Shown here piece after piece: positions 23,483 through 32,000 of a stretch of 32,000 nt of DNA. The translations under genes and the position numbers were made by a program. Each line of letters begins with the position of its first letter. Position 1 is the stretch's first letter. Source of the DNA: Promethearchaeum syntrophicum. GTDB taxonomy: Archaea > Asgardarchaeota > Lokiarchaeia > Sigyniarchaeales > Promethearchaeaceae. Under the pieces are notes generated by a model. The model did no database searches. It was given only the letters and a program-made list of their open reading frames with translations, and was not told where the DNA came from. Location: contig NZ_CP042905.2 in NCBI RefSeq assembly GCF_008000775.2, positions 690,001 through 722,000 of the forward strand. Reading direction: 5' to 3'.

Positions 23483-24238
23483 ATGCTTCCTATAGAAAAA
23501 ATCAATTCAATCGATCAACTCAAAGAAGAATATGGTGACAAATTACCAGTACACTTAGGAATTATTTTAGATGGCAATCGTCGTTGGATAAAAAGACAAG
23601 GTATCAGAGACACATTTAAAGGTCATTTAGTTGGTTATAATACCCTTAAAAAAATGATCTACTCTTCATACGATTGTGGAATTAAATACTTGAGTGTATA
23701 CGCATTATCGACTGATAACGTAGCTAAACGTTCAGAAAAAGAAATTAATTATTTATTTCAGCTTCTTCTGAAAGGAATAGAAGAAGTTTTTGAAGAACCT
23801 CTAACTTTTGAGAAAGAAGTTAAAATTCAAGTGTTTGGTAGAATTGAAGATTTATCTCAAGAATTTCAAGAAAAAATTAAAAAAATCCAAGATTCAACAA
23901 AAAAACATAATAAATATTATCTAAATATGTGCATTATTTATGATGGACAAGAGGAAATTGTTGATGCAGTTAAGAAAATCATACGAAAAGGTATACCACC
24001 TGAAAAAATATCAAAAGAAATTATAAAACAAAACCTTTATACTCACAATATTCCTGAGGCAGATTACATTATTAGAACCGGAATGGAAGATGGTGCACGT
24101 ATTTCAGGTTTCCTATTATGGGATTCTTCTTATGCAGAATTCCGTTTTCGAAATGAATTATGGCCAGATTATAATGAAAAAATGTTAATTGAAGATTTAA
24201 AAGAATATATTAGAAGAAACAGAAGAAAAGGAAAGTGA
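23483..24238 (+). CDS. uppS: cis-prenyltransferase (undecaprenyl/dolichyl-type diphosphate synthase)
   Basis: 251 aa. PVHLGIILDGNRRW, SVYALSTDN, IRTGMEDGARISGFLLWDSSYAEF are hallmark UPPS motifs. Confidence 0.92.
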   Translation: MLPIEKINSIDQLKEEYGDKLPVHLGIILDGNRRWIKRQGIRDTFKGHLVGYNTLKKMIYSSYDCGIKYLSVYALSTDNVAKRSEKEINYLFQLLLKGIEEVFEEPLTFEKEVKIQVFGRIEDLSQEFQEKIKKIQDSTKKHNKYYLNMCIIYDGQEEIVDAVKKIIRKGIPPEKISKEIIKQNLYTHNIPEADYIIRTGMEDGARISGFLLWDSSYAEFRFRNELWPDYNEKMLIEDLKEYIRRNRRKGK

Positions 24239-25345
24239 TCATAATAAATTTCTAAGAATAATTTCAGAACTTCTATGATTTTCCCATAATTCTAAGAAGG
24301 ATTTTAGCCTTTCATCATTTTGAAAGATTTTTTCTCTTAAATTGCGTTTTTGCTTCAAAATCGATAGAAATGAACGATCTAACCTTTTAATATAAGTTTC
24401 ACCCATTTTCTCTTCCCTATCTCTTTTCTCACAATAATTTATTGTTTTAATTGCAATCTCTGCAGACATCATTGCATATGGAATACCTTTTCCACTTATA
24501 GGGTCAACCATTCCTCCTGCGTCTCCTACAGCAAAGACAAAATCTTTGTAGAGTATAGGACGCACCCCTACCGGAATAAGATGTGGCGTATATCTGATTA
24601 AATTCGCATCTTTAATAGTGTGATTTACAAGGGGAATATTAAGGAATTTATTAAATTCACTTTTTGTATGTTTAATTTTGCCAATTTGATTACCCCATCC
24701 TACAGTTAATGCATCTTTTTTTGGAAATAACCATGCGTAACCTAAAGGAATAAAATCTTTAATCCCAAAAAATAAGTGAATTTCATCATTTCCTAATCTT
24801 TCATCAATTTTTTTTTTATTTAATTCCATCTCTTGGGTGAGTGTTAAAATTAAATCCTTTTTATCGAATTTCTCCCAGTATAATTTACTTAATGTAGGAG
24901 AATTTACTCCATCGGCGGCTATTATATATTTTGCGGAATATTTTGAATTTGAAGTTCTGATTAGATATCTAGAATTTATTTTTTTTATTTCAAGTAATCC
25001 TTCATTTTGCTTTAATTCCGCCCCACTGGTAATAGCCATATCAGTGAGGAATTTATCAAATTTATTCCTCCAAATAACTGCTCCTTTACCCTTTTTTGAA
25101 TAAATATTTCCGTCAACATGATGAAGAATGAGTTTTTCTACCATTCTATCGATTTTTTCCTCAGGAAATTTTATTTTATCTATTAATTCCCAAGCCATGG
25201 CACCTCCACATGCTTTATATCTTCCATTTTTCCCTAAATCTTCTTTTTCTAATAAACAAATGGAATACCCTTTATCAGCAGCGATTTTTGCAGCAATTGA
25301 TCCTCCCGGTCCTGCTCCAACTACGATAATATCGAATTTTTCCAT
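24239..25345 (-). CDS. geranylgeranyl reductase family flavoprotein (digeranylgeranylglycerophospholipid reductase-like)
   Basis: 368 aa. FAD Rossmann FDIIVVGAGPGGSIAAKIAADKGYSICLLEK, YIIAADGVNS, FAVGDAGGMVDPISGKGI. Last gene of the mevalonate/GGPP operon. Confidence 0.88.
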   Translation of the reverse strand: MEKFDIIVVGAGPGGSIAAKIAADKGYSICLLEKEDLGKNGRYKACGGAMAWELIDKIKFPEEKIDRMVEKLILHHVDGNIYSKKGKGAVIWRNKFDKFLTDMAITSGAELKQNEGLLEIKKINSRYLIRTSNSKYSAKYIIAADGVNSPTLSKLYWEKFDKKDLILTLTQEMELNKKKIDERLGNDEIHLFFGIKDFIPLGYAWLFPKKDALTVGWGNQIGKIKHTKSEFNKFLNIPLVNHTIKDANLIRYTPHLIPVGVRPILYKDFVFAVGDAGGMVDPISGKGIPYAMMSAEIAIKTINYCEKRDREEKMGETYIKRLDRSFLSILKQKRNLREKIFQNDERLKSFLELWENHRSSEIILRNLL

Positions 25346-25361
25346 ATTAATCCCATTATCA

Positions 25362-26363
25362 TTAGTATGTTCTTTGAATAGAGAATAATGCTAATTTTTG
25401 AAGTTCTTTTTTAGATTCTGAATCAGGGAAAATTTCCAGTTTAGCTATTGCTTCATCTAGTTTATTTTTTACAATTTTTTTTGCAATTTCAATAGCCCCG
25501 CTATTCTTTATTAATTCAATTCCTTTACTGATATCTTCATTAGTCTTTTCTTTTTTACTCAAAATTGTAATTAATTCTCTTTTTTCTTGATTTTTAAGGT
25601 GTTCTAATGCATATATTAGTAAGAAGGTTTTTTTTCCTTCTCGAAGATCGCTTCCTATTGGTTTGCCAAATTTTTTTTCATCTCCGATCAAGCCCAAAAT
25701 ATCATCAATAATTTGAAAACTGATTCCAAATTTATTACCGAATTCCTCTAGTGATTTTAACTGAATTTTACTTGCTTTGGCGCATAATCCACCAATAAAT
25801 GTACTTACTTCAAAAAGAGCTCCAGTTTTTAATTCAACCATTCTCATATATTCTTCAATCGAAACATCAATTCTCTCTTCAAATTCAATATCCATTGTTT
25901 GACCTTCACATAATTTTGAAGAAACTCGTCCTAATTCTAGTAAAACTCTATATTTAATATCTTGGGGTATTTTAGCGTGATGTACAAAAACAAAAGCTTG
26001 GGAGAGAAGAAAATCACCCGCTAAAATTGCGAGAGATTCATCCCATTTAGTATGAACAGTGGGAACATTTCTTCTTATCGGATCTTGATCCATAATATCA
26101 TCATGGATTAAACTAAATGTGTGTAGAATTTCTACTGCAGCTGCAATTGGAATAATATTTTCATAATTTTCCGCCAATAAACTATATGCCTTTATTATAA
26201 AGAAAGGTCTAAGCCGTTTTCCGCCTGCAGTAATATAATGTTGCGAGGCTTTCCAAAGAGTTAGAACTTTATTTGATAAATTATTTAGAATAAAATCGTC
26301 AATTTTTTCCGCAATTTCTTGAAATTTTTTTTTTGTTAATTCAGAATTATCCAATTTTATCAC
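25362..26363 (-). CDS. idsA: short-chain trans-prenyl diphosphate synthase, probably GGPP synthase
   Basis: 333 aa. GGKRLRP, first Asp-rich motif LIHDDIMD with Phe at position -5 (HTFSLIHDD), second motif QIIDDILG..GK..GSDLREGKKT. A bulky -5 residue is the known short-chain (C20) determinant. Confidence 0.88.
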   Translation of the reverse strand: MIKLDNSELTKKKFQEIAEKIDDFILNNLSNKVLTLWKASQHYITAGGKRLRPFFIIKAYSLLAENYENIIPIAAAVEILHTFSLIHDDIMDQDPIRRNVPTVHTKWDESLAILAGDFLLSQAFVFVHHAKIPQDIKYRVLLELGRVSSKLCEGQTMDIEFEERIDVSIEEYMRMVELKTGALFEVSTFIGGLCAKASKIQLKSLEEFGNKFGISFQIIDDILGLIGDEKKFGKPIGSDLREGKKTFLLIYALEHLKNQEKRELITILSKKEKTNEDISKGIELIKNSGAIEIAKKIVKNKLDEAIAKLEIFPDSESKKELQKLALFSIQRTY

Positions 26364-26372
26364 CTTTTATTA

Positions 26373-27443
26373 CTATAATCGCTTTTCTAACCAGTTACTT
26401 AAAGGAGGAAGTATTACATATTCTGCTTTCTTTAAATCTCTGACTGATTTACTCCCAGTTAGGAACATTGCACTCTTTAATTCTGAAATTAAAGTATTGA
26501 TATAAGATTCTATTTCAATAGGATTATCAAAAGCACTTTTCAAAAACGGTTGAGCAATTGCTGATATATTAGCACCAATTGCAATACATTTAGCGATTTC
26601 CAATCCATTACGTATTCCTCCACTTCCAATTATTACTGTAGAATTCTGTGCAATTTTTTTGGTTTCAATAATACTTGCTGCAGATGGAATTCCCCAATTT
26701 AAAAATGTATCTCCTATAGCTGTTTTTAATTGATTTGTTTGCTTTTTTGCTCTAGAATATTCAATGGCTGCAAAAGATGTTCCTCCTAAACCAGAAACAT
26801 CTAAATATTTAATACCTATGTTAATTAAGTCATTTGAAACATTTTTAGAGAATCCTGCTCCTGTTTCTTTTATAATAACTGGAATTTTAAGAGTATTATT
26901 CAATTCGGTGATTTTTTTTTTAGCATTAGTAAAATTAGTGTCTCCTTCTGGTTGAATAATTTCTTGCAAAGGGTTCAAATGAATTGCAATTGCATCAGCT
27001 TCAATGGAACGAATAATTAGTTCAACTGAATCAAAGTCATCCATTTGAATTAATTGTGAAATCCCCAAATTTGCAATTATTGGTATGGTAGGAGCAATTT
27101 CTCTTATAGAAGCAAAATTTTTTGATGTATCTGGGTATTCTAGTTGAATTCTTTGACTTCCAACCATTAGTGGGATTTGATGTTTTTCCGCTGCTTGTGC
27201 TAGTCTTCTATTAATCTCTAATCCTAAATTAGTGCCACCAGTTAATGATCCTATTATAATGGGAGCATTTATTGGTTTTCCTAAAAATTTCATAGTTATA
27301 TCAATATCTTTGAAATTAATTTCGGGGAGAGATTTATGGACAAATCTAACACATTCTAGCCAAGTAGTATTTTTGGAATTGACGTTTTCGTTTAACGAAA
27401 TTTTAATGTGGTCGTCCTTTCTTTGAAAGATATCCTTTTCCAT
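26373..27443 (-). CDS. fni: isopentenyl-diphosphate delta-isomerase, type 2 (FMN-dependent)
   Basis: 356 aa. RKDDHIKI, MVGSQR, IIKETGAG, SGLGGTSFAAIE, IGSGGIRNGLE, the TIM-barrel IDI-2 pattern. Confidence 0.92.
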   Translation of the reverse strand: MEKDIFQRKDDHIKISLNENVNSKNTTWLECVRFVHKSLPEINFKDIDITMKFLGKPINAPIIIGSLTGGTNLGLEINRRLAQAAEKHQIPLMVGSQRIQLEYPDTSKNFASIREIAPTIPIIANLGISQLIQMDDFDSVELIIRSIEADAIAIHLNPLQEIIQPEGDTNFTNAKKKITELNNTLKIPVIIKETGAGFSKNVSNDLINIGIKYLDVSGLGGTSFAAIEYSRAKKQTNQLKTAIGDTFLNWGIPSAASIIETKKIAQNSTVIIGSGGIRNGLEIAKCIAIGANISAIAQPFLKSAFDNPIEIESYINTLISELKSAMFLTGSKSVRDLKKAEYVILPPLSNWLEKRL

Positions 27444-27453
27444 ATTTTCACCT

Positions 27454-28284
27454 TCATTTAATTAGGGTTGATAAAATTTTTTCATTTTTCAATGCTTTAA
27501 TAAGTAGATTTGGTTTTTGTCCGTTTATCAATTGAACTGGAATTCCTAATTTACAGATTTTTTTTATTTCGTGTAATTTTCCTCTGATATTACCAGTAAC
27601 ATCGATAGAATCTTCAAATGTTTTTAATTGTAGTAGATCTATATCCTTTAATTTAATAATTGGAATTACACTTGAATCTTCTTCGCCATTAGAAATGATT
27701 AAACCATCTTTATCGAAGCAAAAAATAATCTTATCTATTCTATATTTTGTATTATTTGAAGAAGAAAATGAATTACAGATTTCGTAAATAACTCTATCTC
27801 CTGATAAAATCGAGAAATTATTTGAATCGTGAATTAAGATATCCCCAAAAAGAATAGGTATTATCCCAATATCTAAAAGAGATTCAATATGATTAAATCC
27901 GGTAAATTTTAAATTAGTTCCTTCTTGATAAAAAATACTTGATGTGGTTAAACTCAAAACTGGAATATTCTTGCCTAAGAAACTATTTATAATCTTATTA
28001 TTTAATTTCCTAACACTTTGATGAGTTTTGGCTAGGCCTAATATCTGATTGGGAATGTTTTGATTTAACCCATTCTGGATTGAAAAGGAATTTGCTAAAG
28101 GATGACCAAAAGATCCTGCGCCATGAATTATAATGATCTTGGGTTGGGTCGAAATATGATAATTATCAGATATCTGAGAAATTAAGCTCTTTATCTCTTT
28201 TTCTTTGATGGAATTTGGAATATTTTTATCTGTTAAGATACTACCTCCTAATTTAACTATGATTACAGGGTTTTTATTTACCAT
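27454..28284 (-). CDS. ipk: isopentenyl phosphate kinase (amino-acid-kinase fold)
   Basis: The ORF track starts at a GTG (28293). ATG at 28284 with an AGGTG SD-like motif gives MVNKNPVIIVKLGGSILTDK. IIIHGAGSFGH and ILSGD fit IPK. The start lies inside the 3' end of mvk. Confidence 0.85.
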   Translation of the reverse strand: MVNKNPVIIVKLGGSILTDKNIPNSIKEKEIKSLISQISDNYHISTQPKIIIIHGAGSFGHPLANSFSIQNGLNQNIPNQILGLAKTHQSVRKLNNKIINSFLGKNIPVLSLTTSSIFYQEGTNLKFTGFNHIESLLDIGIIPILFGDILIHDSNNFSILSGDRVIYEICNSFSSSNNTKYRIDKIIFCFDKDGLIISNGEEDSSVIPIIKLKDIDLLQLKTFEDSIDVTGNIRGKLHEIKKICKLGIPVQLINGQKPNLLIKALKNEKILSTLIK

Positions 28285-29251
28285 ACTTAACACCTTGATT
28301 ATTAATTGAAGTAATTATTGAAGAGTATCCTAGCTTCTTCAATTTTTCTTTAATATTTTTTAAATCTTTTAATTTTCCTATGGAGATCACGCATCCACCT
28401 TTACCTGCACCAGTTAATTTAGAACCGTATGCATTATTAGATATCGAAATTCTAGTTATTTCTTCGATATCTGTTGTTGAGAGACCAATTTCCATTAATA
28501 TTTGATGATTCAAATTCATTAAATGGCCGAATTCAACCAAATTTCCATTTTTTAATTCCTTTAAACCCTTTTCAGTTATTTTACCTATATTATTAAATAA
28601 TTCAGTTGAGATTTTCGGCTCTTTATCACAAAATTCTTTGACATTCTTAATTGCTTCTTTAGTATTATGAGTTTTTCCAGTGTATGTTATTAGGATTTGA
28701 AATTGTTTTAAAAAATTAAACCTTTGAAAATTTTGATTTTTAAAGAATATAAGACCTCCTTGGGAACATGCAGTATTATCAATTCCAGATGGTTTCCCAT
28801 GAACTTCTTTCTCCATTTCGTATGAAAGGGTTGATAAATTTCTACTATTTAATTCTAAATTATAAAATTCATTAAGTGCGCCTAGTAAAGATATTGAAGA
28901 TGAAGCAGAAGATCCAAGACCTGATTCTGGCCATAAATCAGATTGAATTTCGATCTCTATTTTTTCCATCAATATTTTATATTTCTTTGAAAATAATTTT
29001 AAACCTATGGCAATCTGACTAAATTTTGATGGAATTTTATTAAAAAGATCTTTCATATTCAAGAAACTAAAGGTTTGCTCGTAATTTTTTAAAATTAATG
29101 AAATTCCATTTTGATCGCTTTCTGAGATCTGACAAGATGAAGAAACATCAATTGCAATCGCTAAGGCAGGATATCCATAAACAACAGCATGTTCTCCAAA
29201 TAAAATACACTTACCAGGGGCTGATGCAATAGAAGGTCGCATTTTTTTCAA
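28274..29251 (-). CDS. mvk: mevalonate kinase (GHMP family)
   Basis: 325 aa. SAPGKCILFGEHAVVYGYPALA, GHMP motif ESGLGSSASSSISL, KLTGAGKGGCVI. Confidence 0.92.
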   Translation of the reverse strand: MKKMRPSIASAPGKCILFGEHAVVYGYPALAIAIDVSSSCQISESDQNGISLILKNYEQTFSFLNMKDLFNKIPSKFSQIAIGLKLFSKKYKILMEKIEIEIQSDLWPESGLGSSASSSISLLGALNEFYNLELNSRNLSTLSYEMEKEVHGKPSGIDNTACSQGGLIFFKNQNFQRFNFLKQFQILITYTGKTHNTKEAIKNVKEFCDKEPKISTELFNNIGKITEKGLKELKNGNLVEFGHLMNLNHQILMEIGLSTTDIEEITRISISNNAYGSKLTGAGKGGCVISIGKLKDLKNIKEKLKKLGYSSIITSINNQGVKYGK

Positions 29252-29263
29252 TCGTCCAAATGT

Positions 29264-30421
29264 TTATTTTCGTGAATGAAGTTTCATATGGCCCGATTGA
29301 ATTCCTTCATCAGCTAGAGCCCGTAAAGCTGCAAAATTTTGTGCCAAACCTAAAGCAGCAGCTATTTGAGAGAGTTCATCTGCATTTTTTACATCTAATA
29401 TTTTCAAAGCTATTTTTGACATCGGATGTTTATTAATAATGCCTCCAAAAGTTGCCATGGGCATGGGGATTTCAATCGTTCCAACTAAATTATCATCATT
29501 ATCAACATAATAATCTGTTAATGGCCCATAATTACCATTCAATGAAGCAAATGCATGTGCTCCGGCTTCTATAGCTCTTACATCATTCCCCGTGGCTATA
29601 GCTAATGCATCAATTCCATTCATTATTCCCTTGTTTGCTGTTGCTGCTCTGAAAGGGTCCGCTTTGGCAAATGCTTGAGCGTCAAGAATTCTCTCTATTA
29701 TTCTTTTTCCTCCAATCAAATCTTTATTAAATACCGCAGAACTAATTGCAACTCGATAAATTGCTAGATTCGAAATTATTTTCAAATTAATTTGAGCCTT
29801 TACTATTTCTTTTTCGATTATTACATGAGCAATTTTCTCTACCATAGTATTTACCGTATTTGCGCCCATAGCATCAAGAACATTTACAAATAGATGTAGT
29901 ATTATCATCTGCCCTCGTTCCGTAGATATTTCACGAACTTCTAAACTTTGTGCTCCTCCACCCATTTGAACAAGAGTTTTATCGCATAAATTTGCAATTT
30001 TTATTAAATAATCTGTATTTTCCATTAAAATTTTTTTCACATAATCTGAATTCGTAAAATTAGTTAATTGGATTTGTCCTATCATTATAGAATTTACAGG
30101 TTCCGATCGAAATCCTCCAGATTTTCTAGCAATTCTTGCTCCATTACTTGCTGCTGCAACTACAGAAGCTTCTTCAGTAACCATTGGTATTAGATAATCT
30201 ACGTCATTAATTTTAAAATTAGTTGCAATGCTAAAGGGTAAAGAATAACATCCTATTACATTTTCACTCATCATATCTAATTGTTCATCATTGAAATATC
30301 CATAATTTTCTAATATCTGCCTTTCATCTTTCTCTAAATTAACCAATTTTGAGATACACGCTTGTCTTTCAAAGAAAGAAAGTTTATGAAAACCTGAAAT
30401 TTTCGAATGATCCTTTTTCAT
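29264..30421 (-). CDS. hmgA: HMG-CoA reductase, class II (bacterial type)
   Basis: 385 aa. ENVIGCYSLPFSIATNFKINDVDYLIPMVTEEASVVAAAS, DAMGANTVNTM, ATANKGIMNGIDALAIATGNDVRAIEAGAHAF, GIQSGHMKLHSR align almost block-for-block with my recollection of the Pseudomonas mevalonii class II enzyme. Confidence 0.93.
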   Translation of the reverse strand: MKKDHSKISGFHKLSFFERQACISKLVNLEKDERQILENYGYFNDEQLDMMSENVIGCYSLPFSIATNFKINDVDYLIPMVTEEASVVAAASNGARIARKSGGFRSEPVNSIMIGQIQLTNFTNSDYVKKILMENTDYLIKIANLCDKTLVQMGGGAQSLEVREISTERGQMIILHLFVNVLDAMGANTVNTMVEKIAHVIIEKEIVKAQINLKIISNLAIYRVAISSAVFNKDLIGGKRIIERILDAQAFAKADPFRAATANKGIMNGIDALAIATGNDVRAIEAGAHAFASLNGNYGPLTDYYVDNDDNLVGTIEIPMPMATFGGIINKHPMSKIALKILDVKNADELSQIAAALGLAQNFAALRALADEGIQSGHMKLHSRK

Positions 30422-31614
30422 TTTACGTTCAAATTCAAATTAATAAGATCATCCATTAAAAATTTCGCTTCTGGAGATGTTTTTTCTAATAATTTGCTTG
30501 GACCACCAATTTTCCCGATATTTATATCAAATTTATCATTTAAATTGACTAAATCTTCTAAAATTCTTTTAGTAAATTTGGTTCTGGTTAATAAAACCAC
30601 CGAAGGTCCTGTATCTATAGAAAAAAACACAGAAATTCCTTGTTTCCTTAATTTTCGTGTTAAATGCATTATAGAGATGGTTTCTGGAGTCCACAAAATA
30701 AGATTTTTGTCAGGGGATCCTGTCATAGTAATTGCATGTAATTTTAATGTATCGAATTCTGACATTTCACCTAGCTTTTCAAAATTTTCATTGATTAAAT
30801 CATTATAGAAGTCTAAAATGTCTTTTTTTCTGGATTTCATCCAAGAATTATAAAACGGACTGAGGGGTGCAATTTCATGGGCTTTATCAGTTTGTATCTT
30901 TGATTGAATTGAGATTGTGATTAAATCGATATCATTAATAAAAGTTTGAATTTCTTTCGTATCAAGGCGTATCCCAAAACTTACTTTTGGATCCATATTT
31001 GGATGACTCATCCACAGTCCAATTCCTCCAACACAACTACGGATGGCAGACCCGGCTAAGTAACGTGAAAAAAGACACCTTAAACTTAGATTATTTGTAA
31101 ATTTAACTTCATTATCATATAAAATAGAAATTGCCGCATGAGCTATAGATGCACCTGCTGAAGCAGAAGTTCCTATTCCTTTCCCTAATACGGTTTTACT
31201 ATTCCTTTTAATTATGTTTCGTGAAATTATTATGGCTTTGGTATTAATTTTAGAATATTTCCGAATATAGTTTAATTGATGAGATACTCGAATAAATTTT
31301 TGATCTTTAGACTCAATTTCAATTCCATTTAACATAAAACGATCCTTTTGATACTTTTTAGAGAATTTTAAATAGGTAATTGTGAAAAAAGCATCGTTAT
31401 TTAGAGAAATACTTGGAAAATTTGCTGTTCGATGATCTTTATTTGCTAATCCGTGATATTTTAGCATTCCTTGTATTGGATATGCAAGAGTAAAAGCTTC
31501 TCCTTCATTTTTTATTGCGTTTAAATTATTAGGTAAACTAGGTAATGAAATTTTGTTCTTATTAAGATATAATGCTATTTCTTCAACATCTTTTTTTAAT
31601 AACTCATTTAGCAT
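30418..31614 (-). CDS. diphosphomevalonate-decarboxylase-family GHMP protein, predicted phosphomevalonate decarboxylase
   Basis: 398 aa. LKYHG (cf. IKYWGK), FPSISL, GIGTSASAGAS, AGSAIRSCVGG (cf. GSGSASRSIFGG), FFSIDTGPSVVLL (cf. FTMDAGPNVKVL). ATGA overlap with the hmgA start. The specific substrate is inferred from context (IPK present, no PMK in the operon). Confidence 0.7.
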   Translation of the reverse strand: MLNELLKKDVEEIALYLNKNKISLPSLPNNLNAIKNEGEAFTLAYPIQGMLKYHGLANKDHRTANFPSISLNNDAFFTITYLKFSKKYQKDRFMLNGIEIESKDQKFIRVSHQLNYIRKYSKINTKAIIISRNIIKRNSKTVLGKGIGTSASAGASIAHAAISILYDNEVKFTNNLSLRCLFSRYLAGSAIRSCVGGIGLWMSHPNMDPKVSFGIRLDTKEIQTFINDIDLITISIQSKIQTDKAHEIAPLSPFYNSWMKSRKKDILDFYNDLINENFEKLGEMSEFDTLKLHAITMTGSPDKNLILWTPETISIMHLTRKLRKQGISVFFSIDTGPSVVLLTRTKFTKRILEDLVNLNDKFDINIGKIGGPSKLLEKTSPEAKFLMDDLINLNLNVK

Positions 31615-31630: not shown

Positions 31631-32000
31631 TCATAAGTCAATTTGAGAAATTGATGCCATTTCTTCTATTTCAGAAGAAATCTTATTATCTACTAATTCA
31701 AGATATGGAGATGATGAAACAGAACGATAAATAGGCATCCAATTAAGCAATCCTTTTGGTGAATTTGGAGGATCTAATTTATGAGTTTTCCATCGTCTCA
31801 ATTCAAATTCCATGGTAGAACCAATAATAGGTTTGTTCTTTATCAAAATAAATCCATCCATTAAAGGAGATAGATCATTGCTATACGGTTTTATTTCTGT
31901 CAATGTCCCTGTTAAAGGGAATTCGATTAAATTAGAGCCAGAGTGTCCTTTCGGGCAATAATTCAAGCCATTATATTGGGATAGAATGCATCCTTCATTA
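31631..32000 (-). CDS. possible DUF35 (OB-fold/zinc-ribbon) protein of the thiolase/HMG-CoA synthase complex, 5'-truncated by the window end
   Basis: The frame stays open to position 32000; the track's start at 31966 is a TTG. Cys/His-containing N-terminal part (..EGCILSQYNGLNYCPKGH..), then an OB-like ..LTGTLTEIKPY...GFILIKNKPIIGSTMEFELRRW. The position at the head of the mevalonate operon fits DUF35, but the sequence match is weak. Confidence 0.35.
   Translation of the reverse strand, partial: NEGCILSQYNGLNYCPKGHSGSNLIEFPLTGTLTEIKPYSNDLSPLMDGFILIKNKPIIGSTMEFELRRWKTHKLDPPNSPKGLLNWMPIYRSVSSSPYLELVDNKISSEIEEMASISQIDL

Follow-up and report, generated by a model that had tools for sequence, protein, structure and literature searches.

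The closest characterised counterpart of the gene described here is the phosphomevalonate decarboxylase (PMD) of the bacterium Roseiflexus castenholzii, an assayed enzyme with Tyr74, Leu77, Arg83, Ala201, Ser203 and Thr255 in its active site (Dellas et al. 2013, PMC3857490 Table 4). For archaea, a bioinformatic assignment holds that the decarboxylases of Lokiarchaeia resemble both PMD and the decarboxylase acting on mevalonate 3,5-bisphosphate (MBD) and "should function as PMD", with the MBD of Thermoplasmatales placed sister to lokiarchaeial PMD and the haloarchaea-type route as the sole mevalonate (MVA) pathway of Ca. Prometheoarchaeum syntrophicum MK-D1 (Zhu et al. 2024, PMC11052028). We analysed a decarboxylase gene of Promethearchaeum syntrophicum in a window of 32,000 nucleotides (the whole stretch studied: assembly GCF_008000775.2, contig NZ_CP042905.2, positions 690,001 to 722,000). 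We consider its product (P0001) to be an ATP-dependent PMD (EC 4.1.1.99) of the R. castenholzii clade, with a probability of about 0.85; for the Asgard members the reaction itself is what we infer, and the grounds shown here are membership of the family, the pattern of residues, the position in the tree, the fold and the content of the genome. The assignment as PMD is already known, having been published by comparative genomics for Lokiarchaeia and MK-D1 (PMC11052028). What is new here is that P0001 is tied explicitly to the assayed enzyme of R. castenholzii, that the case for an intact ATP site is made residue by residue and that the N-terminal helix is equated structurally with that of MBD.

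The gene and its family

Positions 30418-31614 hold one open reading frame of 398 aa on the minus strand, and the plus strand is full of stops there. A preliminary description of this DNA had given the coordinates correctly and left the strand unstated. It had also read motifs of the diphosphomevalonate decarboxylase (DMD, or MVD) type, all of which lie in P0001: LKYHG at residues 51-55, GIGTSASAGAS at 146-156, AGSAIRS at 187-193 and SIDTGPS at 332-338. The features discussed below are as follows.

30418..31614, minus strand: putative PMD gene (P0001, 398 aa), of the N-extended "KYHG" clade of the MVD/GHMP family
31558..31611, minus strand: codons of the N-terminal helix (residues 2-19) of the ~43-aa extension, which superposes on MBD helix alpha1 (7T71) only (PMC9254496)
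31447..31461, minus strand: KYHGL (residues 52-56), with Tyr53 kept, His54 as in the clade and in haloarchaeal PMDs, and Leu56 in place of the DMD Lys (PMC3857490 Table 4; PMC11052028)
31216..31224, minus strand: Ser131-Arg-Asn133, an S-x-N motif ahead of the P-loop, read as the adenine-binding pair (PMC5177888)
31162..31182, minus strand: GHMP phosphate-binding loop KGIGTSA (residues 145-151), including Thr149 and Ser150
31036..31056, minus strand: AGSAIRS (residues 187-193), with Ala187 and Ser189 as in R. castenholzii PMD and Arg192 as the carboxylate-binding residue (PMC3857490)
30877..30891, minus strand: Thr242 to His246, the Thr matching Thr255 of R. castenholzii PMD (PMC11052028)
30841-30843, minus strand: residue 258 (Trp)
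30604..30615, minus strand: DTGP (residues 334-337), with the catalytic Asp334 (Asp309 of the Picrophilus MBD, PtoMBD; Asp281 of SsoDMD) (PMC9254496)

P0001 matched the Pfam model MVD-like_N with 72.7 bits (E 3.5e-20) and the NCBIfam models for MBD, PMD and DMD at E 1e-45 to 1e-35, and 133 homologues were found, mostly full-length; the family match is therefore not due to chance. The preliminary description of a divergent MVD-family enzyme agrees with this, in that the family profiles match P0001 and yet all three NCBIfam scores are below their cut-offs. Its N-terminal extension of ~40 aa is also real and measures ~43 aa, because homologues align from residue 1-6 and the AlphaFold2 model (mean pLDDT 96.7, from a 148-sequence alignment) has a helix at residues 2-19. 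The conserved core begins at about residue 36-44.

Fold and N-terminal helix

In a comparison with Foldseek and VIA-align, the top match to the AlphaFold2 model was the PtoMBD structure 7T71 (Z 42.6, rmsd 2.2, 345 residues, model residues 3-378), with PMD and DMD structures nearly tied at Z 40-41 and the structure of mevalonate 3-kinase (M3K, 4RKP) at Z 35.2. The PMD and DMD alignments all begin at model residue 36-37, and 7T71 is the only structure aligned to residues 3-35, so the extension of P0001 is the counterpart of MBD helix alpha1, a helix described as absent in known DMD and PMD structures (Aoki et al., PMC9254496). The whole N-extended clade has this helix, the PMD of R. castenholzii too, and it is not a sign of MBD function. 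Among the aligned sequences the extension spans 38-71 aa in the clade of P0001 (23 representatives) and is present in MBD (9 representatives); it is absent in haloarchaeal PMD, Anaerolinea-type PMD and DMD.

Residues of the substrate and nucleotide pockets

An exhaustive HMMER search gave 1280 hits, and all residue counts come from an alignment of 129 representatives chosen among them, each 290-460 aa long. Of these, 125 were sorted into six motif classes, with one unclassed and four too partial, and the beta-phosphate and ATP pockets were judged from the aligned residues. The R. castenholzii comparator (P0263) is a 402-aa ORF from a 5.7-Mb single-contig genome of the family Roseiflexaceae, identified by residue numbering at six positions and not by name. 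It is 36% identical to P0001 (BLASTP, E 6e-70), and all six of the published active-site positions are identical in P0001, as Y53, L56, R62, A187, S189 and T242.

Two positions bear on the substrate. Position 56 is Leu or Met in the clade of P0001, Tyr in MBD and Lys in DMD (54/55), while position 246 is His in the clade, in MBD and in every other monophosphate-substrate group, and Met in DMD (54/55). These are the equivalents of the residues swapped by Thomas et al. (N20K/H194M, 6N0Z) in order to shift the Anaerolinea PMD towards DMD, and Zhu et al. take both as markers (PMC11052028). Since P0001 has Leu56 and not Lys, and His246 and not Met, its sequence points to a substrate carrying a 5-monophosphate.

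The nucleotide site can be read in the same way. Position 131 is Ser in 21/23 members of the clade (Thr in 2/23) and Ser in all ATP-dependent groups, and position 133 is Asn in 23/23 and in all ATP-dependent groups; MBD has Arg at the former and Arg or Lys at the latter. Position 149 is Thr in 23/23, Ser in DMD and Anaerolinea-type PMD, and Glu in MBD (9/9). Ser150 is conserved, its aligned counterpart in E. faecalis MDD being the Mg-ATP serine S106. In PtoMBD, Arg128 and Glu138 sit at the mouth of a lipid cavity that replaces the ATP site (Aoki et al., PMC9254496); their aligned counterparts in P0001 are Asn133 and Thr149, and those of the cavity alanines A103 and A106 are Val110 and Gln113. 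According to Vinokur et al. (PMC5177888), MBD is without two residues that bind adenine and are nearly invariant, and Ser131/Asn133 is the sole residue pair in the alignment that fits this statement. With Ser131/Asn133, Thr149/Ser150 and Val110/Gln113 set against the changes in MBD, the nucleotide site of P0001 looks intact.

The view of the preliminary description that the substrate cannot be read from the sequence was thus too pessimistic, as it is largely readable from Leu56, His246, Ser131/Asn133 and Thr149. Nor is LKYHG, there seen as a departure from a conserved IKYWGK, idiosyncratic: positions 52-55 read KYHG throughout the clade and in haloarchaeal PMDs, KFLG in MBD, and KYWG in Anaerolinea-type PMD and DMD. 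The argument for a true decarboxylase from the retained Asp holds well, Asp334 being invariant across the clade together with Arg192.

Operon and genome content

The gene is the second of a minus-strand run whose other members are, in gene order:

31631..32000, minus strand: 3-hydroxy-3-methylglutaryl-CoA (HMG-CoA) synthase (HMGS), 573 aa, first operon gene, with its 3' part in the window and running to 33352 (L113:132-1853)
29264..30421, minus strand: class II HMG-CoA reductase (HMGR), by profile matches
28274..29251, minus strand: mevalonate (5-)kinase (MVK), which supplies mevalonate 5-phosphate (TIGR00549, 250 bits against a cut-off of 163)
27454..28293, minus strand: isopentenyl phosphate kinase (IPK), which takes the predicted PMD product (NF040647, 196 bits against a cut-off of 120)
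26373..27443, minus strand: type 2 isopentenyl diphosphate (IPP) isomerase (IDI2), by profile match
25362..26363, minus strand: short-chain prenyl diphosphate synthase of the geranylgeranyl diphosphate (GGPP) type, by profile matches
24239..25345, minus strand: geranylgeranyl reductase family protein, final gene of the run, by profile matches

The start of HMGR overlaps the stop codon of the PMD gene (ATGA at 30418-30421). The genome is archaeal, a single 4.32-Mb contig with a marker completeness of 92.65%; genes for aRF1 and an archaeal PyrH lie nearby and the window has a GC content of 30%. The only GHMP-family matches to the MVD-like profile in the genome were the P0001 gene, MVK, a pantoate kinase and a galactokinase. 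Genome searches with the archaeal-type and Gram-positive-type phosphomevalonate kinase (PMK) models found nothing besides MVK itself, and the animal-type model also gave no match beyond MVK, which carries little weight because that model was silent in all control genomes too. The M3K model NF040848 had no match in the genome, the P0001 gene included, at E<=0.001, and a search of the genome for UbiD decarboxylase found none. The sole candidate for the phosphomevalonate dehydratase AcnX (24.8 bits) proved to be a canonical aconitase (PF00330, 379 bits).

With MVK and IPK present, and with neither a PMK nor M3K nor the AcnX/UbiD route found by these profile searches, P0001 offers the only route in sight between mevalonate 5-phosphate and isopentenyl phosphate. 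M3K and M3P5K have likewise been reported absent from Lokiarchaeia (Zhu et al. 2024, PMC11052028). The preliminary description had argued for PMD from the operon context, and MVK and IPK in the operon, the residues, the tree and the characterised relative all agree with it; it had regarded a PMK elsewhere in the genome as evidence to the contrary, and the PMK profile searches found none.

From these components, the reaction would proceed as follows. MVK, encoded two genes downstream, would make mevalonate 5-phosphate, which P0001 would bind via Tyr53, Arg62, Ser189, Arg192, Thr242 and His246. The 3-OH group would be phosphorylated with MgATP, with Ser131/Asn133 serving for adenine and Thr149/Ser150 in the P-loop, and Asp334 would then assist the loss of phosphate and CO2 to yield isopentenyl phosphate. 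The IPK of the same operon would turn this product into IPP. The lower mevalonate route for the isoprenoid lipids of this Asgard archaeon would then be settled as MVK, PMD and IPK, which costs one ATP more than the usual archaeal route.

Phylogeny

Trees were built from subsets of the alignment, a quick tree of 78 rows and a careful maximum-likelihood tree of 66 rows, both read without a fixed root. In the quick tree, a split with 100% SH-aLRT support parts the N-extended sequences (the clade of P0001, a group "X" and MBD) from haloarchaeal PMD, Anaerolinea-type PMD and DMD. Hence P0001 does not cluster with classical MVDs, a clustering that the preliminary description had named as contrary to its reading. 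In the careful tree, P0001 falls inside an Asgard clade (100/99) as sister to the Ca. Lokiarchaeum ossiferum protein (98/94), and the R. castenholzii-numbered PMD is in the neighbouring Chloroflexi/DPANN clade (95/96). The groups with a short N-terminus form one clade, attached within the grade of P0001-type sequences next to P0117 and P0127 (95/93), and MBD is a 100/100 clade with a stem length of 1.36, reached via the X group. Path lengths from P0001 in this tree are 2.05 to R. castenholzii-type PMD, 3.0-3.3 to haloarchaeal PMD, 3.85 to Anaerolinea-type PMD, 3.95-4.4 to DMD and 4.55 to PtoMBD. The nearest characterised enzyme by path is thus the R. castenholzii-type PMD, and P0001 falls in the same clade as the PMD that was characterised before any other, and not in an orphan lineage.

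The X group consists of metagenomic sequences (P0132, P0133, P0142 and P0158) that are N-extended and stand between the clade of P0001 and MBD in the trees. They have EKYLG for KYHG and a P-loop that contains Leu, their S-x-N motif is degenerating, and they have lost the near-universal carboxylate Arg192 while keeping the catalytic Asp.

Contrary evidence and alternative functions

Several observations weigh against an assignment as PMD. P0001 is under every NCBIfam equivalog cut-off, with 153.3 bits against 560 for the MBD model NF040847, 146.8 against 475 for the haloarchaeal PMD MvaD model NF040704 and 120 against 171 for the DMD model TIGR01240, and the MBD model is marginally the highest-scoring of the three. 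Trp258 is shared with MBD and DMD, and both haloarchaeal- and Anaerolinea-type PMDs have Arg at this position. The predicted model contains the extra N-terminal helix of MBD, and the sequence carries the MBD-like motifs ANFPSIS, WxSxP, FYNxW and DTGP. The clade does not strictly conserve the basic residue of the beta-alpha loop, the ATP gamma-phosphate contact in DMD; this loop aligns poorly, which makes the placing of the conserved DMD Lys unreliable. Finally, the reading of S-x-N as the adenine-binding pair goes back to Ser94/Asn96 of S. epidermidis, alongside the statement of Vinokur et al. given above.

The low scores have a parallel in the R. castenholzii-numbered PMD (P0263), which reached only 175.9 bits with NF040704 and is also below all NCBIfam equivalog cut-offs; PtoMBD itself scored 566 bits with NF040847. 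NF040704 therefore does not cover the R. castenholzii/Lokiarchaeial clade, and no NCBIfam equivalog model captures it. As a consequence, its members bear names such as "GHMP kinase", "hypothetical protein" or [quoted passage not shown]. The practical gain of the present assignment concerns annotation only, for clade members that go by vague names or are wrongly called diphosphomevalonate decarboxylases.

Another possibility is that the Asgard enzyme is a functional intermediate between PMD and MBD, an ATP-dependent PMD with an extra property conferred by the MBD-type helix and a partly MBD-like nucleotide cleft. Such a property could be, for example, control by a prenyl diphosphate, in the way that PtoMBD is activated by GGPP, or turnover of mevalonate 3,5-bisphosphate without a nucleotide. 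We regard this possibility as doubtful; if true, the enzyme would be a living model for the origin of the Thermoplasma-type pathway.

It is very unlikely that P0001 is itself an MBD, even though the nominally best NCBIfam model (153 bits), the structure 7T71, which ranks first and alone covers the N-terminal helix, the motifs listed above and a place with MBD on one side of the tree's strongest split all lean that way. Its score is far under 560, and the changes specific to MBD are missing, with S131/N133 and not R/R, T149 and not E, V110/Q113 and not Ala, and KYHG and not KFLG. Moreover, the operon contains a bona fide MVK, the genome has no M3K match, M3K and M3P5K are absent from Lokiarchaeia in the survey cited above, and MBD lies on a long derived branch at a path of 4.55.

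We give even less credence to a classical DMD, or a dual PMD/DMD, that would feed IPP directly and leave IPK for salvage only. The fold and the catalytic Asp, Arg and Ser are as in DMD, as is Trp258, and many homologues are annotated as "diphosphomevalonate decarboxylase" by their sources. However, the diphosphate-binding Lys is absent (Leu56), His246 replaces Met, the TIGR01240 score of 120 bits is below 171, neither type of PMK turned up in the single-contig 4.32-Mb genome, and the tree parts P0001 from DMD at 100% support. Least probable of all is a non-decarboxylating kinase similar to M3K or an enzyme with another substrate, as the fold shared with M3K (4RKP, Z 35.2) and the X relatives, which show loss of catalytic residues to be possible in this clade, are opposed by the invariant Asp334, a residue replaced in M3K, and Arg192, by the silence of NF040848 genome-wide, the P0001 gene included, and by an operon that would be left without its step from mevalonate 5-phosphate to isopentenyl phosphate.

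Distribution and genomic context of the relatives

The closest named relatives of P0001 are from metagenome-assembled genomes (MAGs) of Promethearchaeum sp. (78-84% identity) and from Ca. Lokiarchaeum ossiferum (P0016, 55%), whose orthologue is deposited as "Phosphomevalonate decarboxylase". By a pattern search of species-representative genomes, the clade is common; it occurs in Asgard MAGs with the labels Promethearchaeota, Helarchaeota, Hodarchaeota and Odinarchaeota, in some DPANN MAGs and in many Chloroflexota, Oscillochloris and Roseiflexaceae among them. Of 51 loci fetched with a length of at least 12 kb, 22 had MVK and 22 had IPK within 8 kb of the homologue. These comprise almost every Asgard-type locus, and most also had HMGR, HMGS and IDI2. 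The Chloroflexota loci had none of these five genes near the homologue.

Close relatives of the Chloroflexi branch were also seen in MAGs of Aenigmatarchaeota and Micrarchaeota and in one labelled Cytophagia (L042, L044, L051, L054, L046), which suggests horizontal transfer or binning errors. Among 31 genomes sampled from the family of a Roseiflexaceae MAG (G001-G032), 16 had the N-extended PMD (E 1e-58 to 1e-69), 14 had nothing but a distant homologue of the classical MVD type (E 1e-9 to 1e-20) and 1 had no match; hence, the two decarboxylase types alternate within one bacterial family.

In the operon, the HMG-CoA synthase has ~130-150 residues outside the Pfam HMGS domains, in a tail without Pfam match. 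Adjoining the reductase end of the operon is a divergent gene on the plus strand (23483-24238) for a cis-prenyltransferase of the UppS family, which makes GGPP supply and the synthesis of dolichol-type carriers neighbours. An Rfam search of the window gave no match.

Comparison with known systems

The Haloferax-type PMD MvaD (NF040704) and the Anaerolinea thermophila PMD (6N0X) share with P0001 the predicted reaction, the pathway logic and His246, and the Haloferax type also has KYHG in common with it. Unlike P0001, both lack the N-terminal extension, have Arg258 and not Trp, and lie across the fully supported split, and the Anaerolinea type has KYWGN and DAGPN. PtoMBD is similar in its N-terminal helix, fold, His246, Trp258, DTGP Asp, ANFPSIS and WxSxP. 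It differs in that the adenine-binding Ser/Asn pair is replaced by R/R, the P-loop has Glu, alanines widen the lipid cavity and KFLG takes the place of KYHG; it is also ATP-independent and has M3K and M3P5K as partners, of which M3K was not found in the genome of P. syntrophicum.

The R. castenholzii PMD (Dellas et al. 2013, PMC3857490; Vinokur et al. 2016, PMC5177888) belongs to the same N-extended KYHG clade, keeps the S-x-N motif and the P-loop hydroxyls and works with MVK and IPK and without PMK. In contrast to P0001, it is bacterial (Chloroflexota), stands apart from other MVA genes in the loci seen, has a longer extension (~65 aa) and carries Ser in the P-loop where P0001 has Thr149. The Lokiarchaeial PMD of L. 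ossiferum (P0016) is an orthologue with the same operon partners, and between it and P0001 there is no difference of substance.

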